From the sequence record OL780484.1: a stretch of DNA of 64,000 nt. One strand, given 5' to 3'. The stretch comes from Escherichia phage vB_EcoM-E33. Positions 24,675 through 25,835 of this stretch are shown here, piece by piece (position 1 is the stretch's first letter; each line of letters starts with the position of its first letter). Under the pieces are notes generated by a model. The model saw only the letters and a program-made list of their open reading frames with translations. It made no database searches and was not told the origin of the DNA. Position numbers and translations under genes: made by a program.

Positions 24675-24702
24675 GGCCCTTCCGAAAGGTTGGGCTTTTT
24701 TT
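24675..24702 (+). terminator. rho-independent terminator (repeated module, copy 1)
   Basis: ggcccttccgaaaggttgggc hairpin followed by ttttttt; same element recurs at 25808. Confidence 0.7.
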
Positions 24703-24703
24703 G

Positions 24704-24711
24704 TATAAATA
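24704..24711 (+). promoter_or_regulatory. late promoter TATAAATA
   Basis: Exact TATAAATA about 27 nt upstream of the 24738 ATG. Confidence 0.45.
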
Positions 24712-24737
24712 TGTAGTAAACTAACTTAGGAAATAAT

Positions 24738-25202
24738 ATGAAAACTTACAATGAATTTTTGACTGAACAATCTAGTTCAGATGTAAAAGCCGCTGCGATT
24801 GCAGCAATTCAAGCAGGTAAATATTCTTACAAAGACGCCTCTGATGAAGAACGTTTCCGTTTTATTAAAGATTTTAAAGCCGAAGGTTTTACTAATGCCA
24901 ATACTGTTAGCCGAGTTTTTAAAAGCCTAGCTGCATCAGGTGAATTGTTCCAGAAAGCTACAGGTAAAGCACCTGCGTCAAAAGCGGACCCTAAAGCCGC
25001 TCAAGAAAAAAATATCGCCAAAGGAATTATTTCTAAGTATGAAGCAATTCTTAAAGAGCTTTTAGTAATCAAAACAGAAGGCCAGAAACTGGCACGAGCA
25101 CATAGCTTCAAAGATAATCCACATGCTCACGACTTAGAGTATGTTGAAGATATTCAGAAAATCATCAAAGACCGTATCTGGTCTGCTAAACAAATCAAAT
25201 AA
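24738..25202 (+). CDS. internal-protein-like protein with capsid-targeting leader
   Basis: N-terminus MKTYNEFLTEQ (L-T-E cleavage motif); 154 aa, Lys/Ala-rich; late promoter upstream. Confidence 0.7.
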   Translation: MKTYNEFLTEQSSSDVKAAAIAAIQAGKYSYKDASDEERFRFIKDFKAEGFTNANTVSRVFKSLAASGELFQKATGKAPASKADPKAAQEKNIAKGIISKYEAILKELLVIKTEGQKLARAHSFKDNPHAHDLEYVEDIQKIIKDRIWSAKQIK

Positions 25203-25206
25203 CGAA

Positions 25207-25228
25207 AGCCCCGTCTGGGGCTTTTTTG
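25207..25228 (+). terminator. rho-independent terminator
   Basis: agcccc-gtct-ggggct hairpin followed by tttttt. Confidence 0.75.
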
Positions 25229-25246
25229 GTTAACTTAGAGAAATAT

Positions 25247-25801
25247 ATGAAACTTTTAAAATATTTGAGTTGGGTTCTGTTGGTTCCACTGGATTTCATC
25301 TCTATGGTTCTGGCCGTTATCCTTGCGCCTTTTGTAGTTCCTTTCCATAATAAAAAGACCGGTAAATTGCCTTATGGCTTTGATTGGATGATGACATACG
25401 ATAATCCAATTGACGGTGACAAAGGTCATATTAAACGTTGGGCTAAAATCAGGAAAATGCCGGGCGGTGTTTATCTCCAGAGGGTAGCTTGGCTATGGCG
25501 AAATAAAGCTTATAACTTTGCTTACCATAAACTTGGACGCGATTGTAGCTCAGAATTCCATTATCGTGGTAATCCTGACGTTGAATCCGGTTCTCCTGAT
25601 AAAGCTCATCATGGATGGTTATGGATGTGGAATGACGAAGCATGGGGGGTCTTTGCTTCAGTTCCGTATCTTAAAGTAGGTGGGATTACCTTTTACCTTC
25701 GTGTATACTGTGGTTGGAAACTTAAGAGTCTTTTGTCTCGTAAAATCCCTAAGGCTATGTTAGCCTTCCACATAAACCCATTCCGGTTCTACAAGAACTG
25801 A
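25247..25801 (+). CDS. membrane-anchored hypothetical protein (Trp-rich)
   Basis: ATG 25247 (MKLLKYLSW...) with N-terminal hydrophobic helix; ORF-track TTG start 25226 lies inside the terminator tail. Confidence 0.5.
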   Translation: MKLLKYLSWVLLVPLDFISMVLAVILAPFVVPFHNKKTGKLPYGFDWMMTYDNPIDGDKGHIKRWAKIRKMPGGVYLQRVAWLWRNKAYNFAYHKLGRDCSSEFHYRGNPDVESGSPDKAHHGWLWMWNDEAWGVFASVPYLKVGGITFYLRVYCGWKLKSLLSRKIPKAMLAFHINPFRFYKN

Positions 25802-25807
25802 TTCTAG

Positions 25808-25835
25808 GCCCTTCCGAAAGGTTGGGCCTTTTTTG
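25808..25835 (+). terminator. rho-independent terminator (repeated module, copy 2)
   Basis: ggcccttccgaaaggttgggcc hairpin followed by tttttt. Confidence 0.7.

Follow-up and report, generated by a model that had tools for sequence, protein, structure and literature searches.

The window analysed here is a stretch of 64,000 nucleotides (nt) from Escherichia phage vB_EcoM-E33 (sequence record OL780484.1), and the element in question is a short hairpin with a T-run that occurs in it twice. Between positions 24400 and 26100, the window shares 99.9% identity with Escherichia phage WG01 (as its reverse complement), a relative of T4 that belongs to the genus Dhakavirus (Straboviridae, Tevenvirinae). 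The locus has a tRNA/stable-RNA cluster on its left and gene e.8 on its right, and the region contains many small unnamed open reading frames (ORFs). In agreement with an original prediction made for this DNA, the two copies of the hairpin flank exactly two ORFs, at 24738-25202 and 25247-25801 (Table 1). As described below, the comparison of this interval with those of related phages suggests that the hairpin is probably a conserved T-even terminator with two roles, namely as an insulator in RNA and, in DNA, as the boundary of gene modules that are gained and lost.

The core of the repeat is the 21-mer GGCCCTTCCGAAAGGTTGGGC, with two exact matches in the window (24675-24695 and 25807-25827); a third match was not found there, even when up to three mismatches were allowed. 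Both copies had thus been recognised correctly in the original prediction, although the second starts at 25807, one position before the 25808 that it gave. When extended, the repeat reaches 31 nt with a single mismatch, GGGCT against GGGCC (97% identity). The letters ctagg, which had been noted ahead of both copies, are literally present, but they are out of register, as they lie 5 nt upstream of copy 1 and overlap the first GG of copy 2; they were consequently rejected as a component of the repeat. Chance similarity or misassembly has a negligible probability as an explanation and can be regarded as refuted, since none of 100 dinucleotide-preserving shuffles reproduced the two matches and the same arrangement is found in the independently sequenced WG01, QL01, UGJNEcP3/4, ABTNLsp5 and vB_EcoM_005.

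Both copies have the makeup of intrinsic terminators. They fold into a G+C-rich stem-loop with a GAAA tetraloop and a 2x2 U.U internal loop (-15.2 and -16.0 kcal/mol), directly followed by 6-7 U, and both were picked in an independent scan of the WG01 genome. The stem is kept by compensatory change among relatives: its outer part is GGCCC..GGGCC in Dhakavirus, GCCCC..GGGGC in Mosigvirus and GCCCCGACC..GGTTGGGGC in Tequatrovirus, and in its inner part the mismatched TT alternates with GA, AG or GG, which are paired with UU. Copies inside one genome usually carry the same lineage-specific stem variant, which fits duplication by recombination or conversion between copies. In addition, all three copies in the WG01 genome are intergenic and at the 3′ end of transcription units, copy 1 after the rnaC homologue, copy 2 after the stop codon of the second ORF, and the third, outside the window, in the uvsY operon after ORF187, downstream of uvsY. 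Judging from the hairpin, the T-run and this position, the element is predicted to terminate transcription. By alignment, copy 1 is the orthologue of the terminator of the T4 tRNA/rnaC operon, downstream of the annotated rnaC: the match between the window and T4 runs through tRNA-Arg (identical in both), rnaD, rnaC and a conserved trailer of 50 nt up to the hairpin. In T4, Mosigvirus, Dhakavirus and VR20-like genomes alike, this conserved trailer immediately precedes the terminator.

A common terminator family, repeated throughout the genome, had been named in the original prediction as a reading that would speak against modular exchange. It was rejected, as the core occurs at only three places per genome and these account for three of the 28 strong terminator-like sites that a simple scan found in WG01. 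Among GenBank phages, the hairpin family is almost confined to T-even relatives, with 1-4 places per record among the matches listed and one in T4. A second terminator family with three copies is also present in WG01 (KU878968): it has the sequence AAGGAACCTTCGGGTTCCTTT with a UUCG tetraloop, and is located at 156054(+), 164330(-) and 14452(-), after gene 35, upstream of motA and after soc.

The first of the two genes is an internal-protein-like gene, here called IP-A, for which a capsid-targeting leader, a late promoter and a terminator of its own had been proposed; sequence motifs for all three were recovered. The protein begins with a leader of about 10 residues, MKTYNEFLTE, which contains an LxE motif at its end, in line with the L/I-x-E cleavage motif of such leaders, and is of the type found in T4 internal proteins. 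The consensus of the capsid-targeting leader of T4 is MKTYQEFIAE. IP-A matches phrog_2280 at 6e-53, and its N-terminus matches phrog_7857, 'internal virion protein', at 7e-4; regarding its function, searches of Pfam, NCBIfam, PADLOC and PDB sequences gave nothing beyond the PHROG matches. Homologues are found in 510 phage records, one per record. The T4-type late promoter motif TATAAATA follows copy 1, and its position behind the terminator is conserved in Dhakavirus, Tequatrovirus, Mosigvirus (PTK) and VR20. IP-A would thus be expressed late, from a motif that is conserved 26 nt upstream in several genera. The hairpin and T-run at the end of IP-A are common to all Dhakaviruses with the IP-A/DUF7338 junction, with a loop that varies between gtct and agat. 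This terminator (GCCCCGTCTGGGGC) and a T4-type hairpin of the family (GCCCCGACCGAAAGGTTGGGGC) have the same outer stem and the same tttttgg tail. Speculatively, it may be a member of the family that lost its apical part.

The second gene had been described as coding for a membrane protein, and the analysis agrees. The product has a single N-terminal hydrophobic segment (Kyte-Doolittle maximum 2.44, residues 9-27) and matches the Pfam family PF24027 (DUF7338) over its full length (residues 1-183, 4.4e-63, 212.6 bits against a cut-off of 27), as well as phrog_2143. DUF7338 is found in 592 phage records from many myovirus genera. No paper that mentions it was found in the literature, and its AlphaFold model (predicted local distance difference test score, pLDDT, of 93) matched no solved structural relative. 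In MX01, JS98 and PTK, the gene lies directly behind TATAAATA. In the window, no promoter motif precedes it, and IP-A with its terminator stands between the late promoter with the 5′ untranslated region (5′ UTR) and the start codon of DUF7338; expression is therefore probably achieved by read-through from the late promoter across the hairpin of IP-A.

Table 1. Features of the locus in the window (RBS, ribosome-binding site; aa, amino acids)
Feature	Position	Strand	Basis or remark
tRNA-Met and tRNA-Arg, start of the tRNA/stable-RNA unit closed by copy 1	24136-24292	+	ARAGORN, Rfam tRNA
Homologues of T4 stable RNAs rnaD and rnaC (rnaC-like part ~24482-24622)	24293-24623	+	alignment to annotated T4 rnaD/rnaC
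Conserved trailer at the 3′ end of the tRNA operon (..CACTTGCCTAGCAGGTGGAACCCCGACAAGG..), immediately left of copy 1	24624-24673	+	conservation
Predicted terminator, copy 1	24674-24704, hairpin 24675-24696, then T-run	+	repeat, folding, T4 alignment
Late promoter motif TATAAATA of the T4 type, adjoining the T-run of copy 1 and 26 nt ahead of the ATG	24704-24711	+	
5′ UTR/RBS/start repeat AACTTAGGAAATAATATGAAA, first copy; alternative recombination joint	24723-24743	+	MX01 joins it directly to the DUF7338 ORF
Module 1 cargo, internal-protein-like gene IP-A, 154 aa, starts MKTYNEFLTE	24738-25202	+	
Hairpin and T-run of IP-A, AAAGCCCCGTCTGGGGCTTTTTT	25205-25227	+	folding, -15.4 kcal/mol
5′ UTR/RBS/start repeat, second copy, AACTTAGAGAAATATATGAAA	25232-25252	+	
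Module 2 cargo, DUF7338 protein, 184 aa, one N-terminal hydrophobic helix	25247-25801	+	
Predicted terminator, copy 2	25806-25836, hairpin 25807-25828, then T-run	+	repeat, folding
Dispersed early-promoter element upstream of e.8: GTTTAC (25859-25864), 17-nt spacer, TACTAT (25882-25887), RBS	25851-25927	+	
e.8, conserved right-hand neighbour	25923-26186	+	phrog_2678; annotated e.8 in WG01, JS98, T4

Relatives in which the interval is present or absent, with breakpoints inside the repeat, had been proposed as the decisive comparison, and they exist. For this purpose, a synthetic 'excised' query, in which a single terminator joins the sequence on the left of copy 1 to that on the right of copy 2, was searched in GenBank phages. 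In the Dhakaviruses vB_EcoM_FB and ABTNLS3, which lack the whole interval, the match to this query is uninterrupted. Their junction holds a single GGCCCTTCCGAAAGGTTGGGCC, with the left side (...ccctaggttaaa) as in copy 1 and the right side (ttttttgtttctaaaa and the early promoter) as in copy 2. A second pair comes from Tequatrovirus, where T4 equals the loci L018 and L019 minus exactly one repeat unit and an internal-protein module. The third is found at the rI locus of Mosigvirus: PhAPEC2 has rI, one terminator and an early promoter, and PTK has rI, a terminator, TATAAATA, DUF7338, a terminator and the early promoter, with direct repeats of about 34 nt as flanks. Thus, in three independent pairs of empty and occupied sites, the junctions are in register and show no scar, and the DUF7338 module is associated with one and the same terminator in two genera, at a different locus in each. 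Among the sampled Dhakaviruses, no genome was found with the same genes and no flanking repeats.

The interval from rnaC to e.8 is highly polymorphic among relatives. Broad sampling came from GenBank phages, as scans of IMG/VR with the e.8 protein and an e.8 alignment gave the same 10 loci, mostly copies of GenBank records. From the terminator of the tRNA operon to e.8, T4 has the terminator only, RB69 has the terminator and internal-protein gene B, and PhAPEC2 has the terminator, internal-protein gene A, a terminator and internal-protein gene B. In MX01, the order is terminator, late promoter, DUF7338 and terminator, to which JS98 adds a further late promoter and a third internal-protein gene. 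The window shares with WG01 and QL01 the order terminator, late promoter, gene A with its own terminator, DUF7338 and terminator, and PSD2002 and IME341 are alike except for a deletion of about 490 bp inside DUF7338. On its right-hand side, the hairpin is followed by at least seven different modules in the genomes compared. The idea that the two genes form a single cassette does not hold in view of these arrangements: of the two, MX01 and JS98 carry DUF7338 and PSD2002 the internal-protein gene, in each case without the other, and in PhAPEC2 the terminators enclose no gene but the internal-protein gene. The interval is instead made of two independent modules whose genes are found separately in relatives. 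In phage 04086 (positions 1478-1900 of its locus), a tandem duplication of about 209 bp, which is either real or an assembly artefact, includes the terminator, the 5′ UTR and the first ~60 codons of the internal-protein gene and results in three terminator copies in the locus.

These arrangements can be explained by one sequence that acts at two levels. As RNA, copy 1 would end the tRNA/rnaD/rnaC unit, so that transcription of the internal-protein gene would start solely at the late promoter next to the T-run, and copy 2 would end the late unit ahead of the early promoter of e.8. This would insulate the late module on both sides, against the early/middle tRNA operon and the early e.8 operon. 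As DNA, the copies would delimit modules composed of a late promoter, an RBS, one ORF and a terminator, which may be stacked between the tRNA operon and e.8. General homologous recombination of the T4 type between copies would delete modules, the reverse reaction with a circular or co-infecting donor could insert them, and recombination between copies in different genomes or loci could reshuffle them. That recombination is the mechanism, and in which direction each event went, we infer from the sequences compared, as we do the activity of the terminators and promoters. In the window, two modules appear to be stacked, with IP-A and its own terminator seemingly inserted between the late promoter and 5′ UTR of DUF7338 and its start codon.

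Alternatively, the terminators might provide insulation only. According to this explanation, morons with their own promoter and terminator arrive by illegitimate recombination, and only the insertions behind an existing terminator survive, as these spare the neighbouring operons; the likeness of the hairpins would then reflect a shared efficient design. Selection alone would also leave insertions visible only beside terminators, and several observations favour insulation or weigh against the explanation given above. The closest relatives use other joints. The joint by which MX01 lacks the internal-protein gene lies inside the RBS/ATGAAA repeat (AACTTAGGAAATAATATGAAA / AACTTAGAGAAATATATGAAA), and the deletion in PSD2002 and IME341 has no more than 2-3 nt of microhomology. 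The DUF7338 module of VR20 has a terminator of the family upstream only and a different hairpin at its end, and the indel that separates VR20 from L043 is flanked only by GCTTTTTTATA. Moreover, 31 bp is short for efficient recombination in T4. The promoter motif TATAAATA is not enriched, with 6 copies in the window against 7.8 expected by chance, and is not significant alone. The genome also has the second three-copy terminator family, and the presence of the same hairpin core in unrelated T7-sized and 251-kb contigs is compatible with convergence on a stable GNRA-loop terminator. Nevertheless, insulation without recombination between the copies is unlikely, as it does not account for the scar-free, in-register junctions of the three pairs, for flanking copies whose identity extends to the unpaired U.U positions and to their flanks (31-34 nt), or for a DUF7338 module whose stem matches the resident copies, being of Dhaka type in Dhakavirus and of Mosig type in PTK. 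The exchange of modules at terminator junctions, as originally predicted, is thus supported, although with two modules instead of one, with other joints in the nearest relatives, and as an idea that has already been published.

The contigs and the deletion just mentioned deserve some detail. In a 251-kb IMG/VR contig of an unrelated large phage, four copies of CCC[GA]ACCGAAAGGTTGGGG with a T-run are found within 3.4 kb (5214-8634), each after 1-3 small ORFs. Contigs of ~14-39 kb, of which the whole ones measure ~37-39 kb and are T7-sized, carry CCC[GT]GCCGAAAGGTTGGGGC. Both cases could represent convergence or the spread of the same terminator. The deletion inside DUF7338 is identical in PSD2002 (2340-2365 of its locus) and IME341 (~3800), with the junction ..atgaaacttttaaaata|aagctatg... 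As these phages have different types of left-hand terminator, the deleted DUF7338 allele appears to have been passed on by recombination.

The hairpin could also be more than a passive stretch of homology. In one set of T4 deletion endpoints, GGGC is involved in about half, at times paired with GCCC as an inverted repeat (PMC2839356), and the hairpin has both motifs; in VR20, the crossover needs only the GGGC and the T-run end of it. Thus, the GCCC/GGGC inverted repeat, or its cruciform or hairpin, might be cut by a phage nuclease and serve as a specific site comparable to attC. Such site-targeted exchange is, however, very improbable: no recombinase or integrase is present among the 273 annotated features of WG01, to which no dedicated search with hidden Markov models (HMMs) was applied, and nothing in the present data separates it from ordinary homologous recombination. 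A related and wider proposal, by which the hairpin is a preferred structure- or sequence-targeted site and modules of late promoter and gene hop between loci (tRNA/e.8, rI, uvsY) and between lineages, seems a long shot. If it were true, this would be a cassette system that resembles attC, needs no integrase and is based on a transcription terminator, and the core in the unrelated contigs would represent spread and not convergence. Exchange by a homing endonuclease was also considered, and no gene for such an enzyme was seen among the ORFs that flank the locus in the window. In T4, segB lies within the tRNA region, and in IME341 an ORF of 223 aa lies upstream.

The reading of the terminator as a module boundary agrees with what has been described for other T4-type phages, so that the general principle is already published and the advance is incremental. 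In the account of Arbiol et al. (2010; PMC2839356), optional ORFs of RB49 and phi1 lie between repeated stem-loop/early-promoter motifs (PeSLs), of which a single chimeric one is left after excision, and mini-circles form. Comeau et al. (2014; PMC4122927) extend PeSLs to PST/T4 and nt-1/KVP40, and give the PST/T4 promoter consensus as TTTACW-N17-TAYWAT. The present repeat is, likewise, a short repeated terminator stem-loop in a hyperplastic region that flanks optional ORFs and stands at the indel or replacement boundaries of close relatives (FB/ABTNLS3, T4 against L018/L019, PhAPEC2 against PTK), and excision between its two copies would leave one chimeric copy. Furthermore, copy 2 with the early-promoter element behind it has the PST/T4-type PeSL layout of stem-loop, early promoter, Shine-Dalgarno sequence and ATG, and the promoter of that element, with the -35 hexamer read as GTTTAC, fits the consensus. 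By contrast, copy 1 is followed by the late promoter motif and not by an early or middle one, and the phrase 'late promoter' does not appear in PMC2839356. The conserved part is here a G+C-rich hairpin with three copies per genome, compared with about 50 for PeSLs. T4 deletion endpoints are also noted in PMC2839356, citing Mosig (1998), as often involving GGGC/GCCC inverted repeats, and recombination at the present hairpin, which contains these motifs, fits that remark.

As noted in PMC2839356, only two loci seemed to hold internal-protein genes. Repoila et al. (1994), as cited in PMC2839356 and PMC4122927, described repeated elements of about 70 bp, with an early promoter and an inverted repeat, that flank these genes at two T-even loci. 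The window is similar in that internal-protein genes with a conserved N-terminal leader behave as shuffled cassettes between repeated regulatory sequences, and the window holds element families of the same type (D1 and D2) as well as repeated leader-coding DNA (D3 and D4). The latter consists of the leader-coding DNA and RBS of the five ORFs in the window that begin with MKTY[NQ][EQ]F (at 22387, 24738, which is IP-A, 33895, 34809 and 35177), and forms a dispersed repeat of 30-48 nt. However, IP-A is in neither of the two classical loci (57B-tRNA and denV-e), but at a third site, between the rnaC homologue and e.8, and is bounded by the tRNA-operon terminator and a late promoter instead of AT-rich stem-loops with early promoters.

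Two further systems are comparable. Phage morons are autonomous units of promoter, gene and terminator between conserved genes, known from lambdoid phages. The DUF7338 module (PTK compared with PhAPEC2, MX01 with FB) and the internal-protein module (L018 compared with T4) share this design, with promoter and terminator activity predicted from sequence: one ORF with its own putative promoter and a terminator, placed between two transcription units and absent from collinear relatives. They differ in that the same terminator sequence on both sides sets the junction, in the T4-type late promoter and in the host genome, which is that of a strictly lytic myovirus. In a similar manner to integron cassettes, the modules hold one ORF each, are stacked at a single site and have a repeated imperfect palindrome as their boundary. 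Unlike these, they bring their own promoter, the annotation of WG01 mentioned above lists no integrase, and their exchange is most simply explained by general homologous recombination.

What the locus adds to the PeSL idea is the combination of a G+C-rich terminator with a late promoter, a third site for internal-protein genes, and one cassette, DUF7338, that is found with the same terminator at two loci in two genera. It also represents a natural example of accessory-gene swapping, with empty, one-gene, two-gene and alternative-gene states and a junction that is readable to the base. The cargo probably includes injected anti-defence proteins, and the site could offer a neutral, insulated insertion point for the engineering of Dhakavirus and T4-like therapeutic phages.

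To the left of copy 1, the stable-RNA part of the unit is itself variable. In E-value mode, Rfam detected only the two tRNAs between 23800 and 26000, and nothing for the rnaC and rnaD homologues or the hairpin. A segment of 66 nt between tRNA-Arg and the rnaD homologue (24296-24361) is absent from T4. MX01 is without exactly the rnaC homologue (~144 nt; 24483-24627 in the window) and keeps the trailer and terminator, which suggests that this stable RNA is itself dispensable and polymorphic. The homologue is probably also missing from JS98-type genomes, whose match to the window begins only at ~24625.

To the right of copy 2, the sequence GTTTAC-N17-TACTAT, about 30 nt downstream, is the predicted early promoter of e.8. 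It is part of a dispersed element of 63-77 nt (GTTTAC..N17..TACTATAGACCTATCAA; families D1 and D2) with at least nine copies in the window, at 22758, 25851, 31128, 34288, 37099, 41006, 45081, 45415 and 46817. This element is probably the family that Repoila et al. described at the internal-protein loci, and some of its copies are found directly behind internal-protein-like genes.

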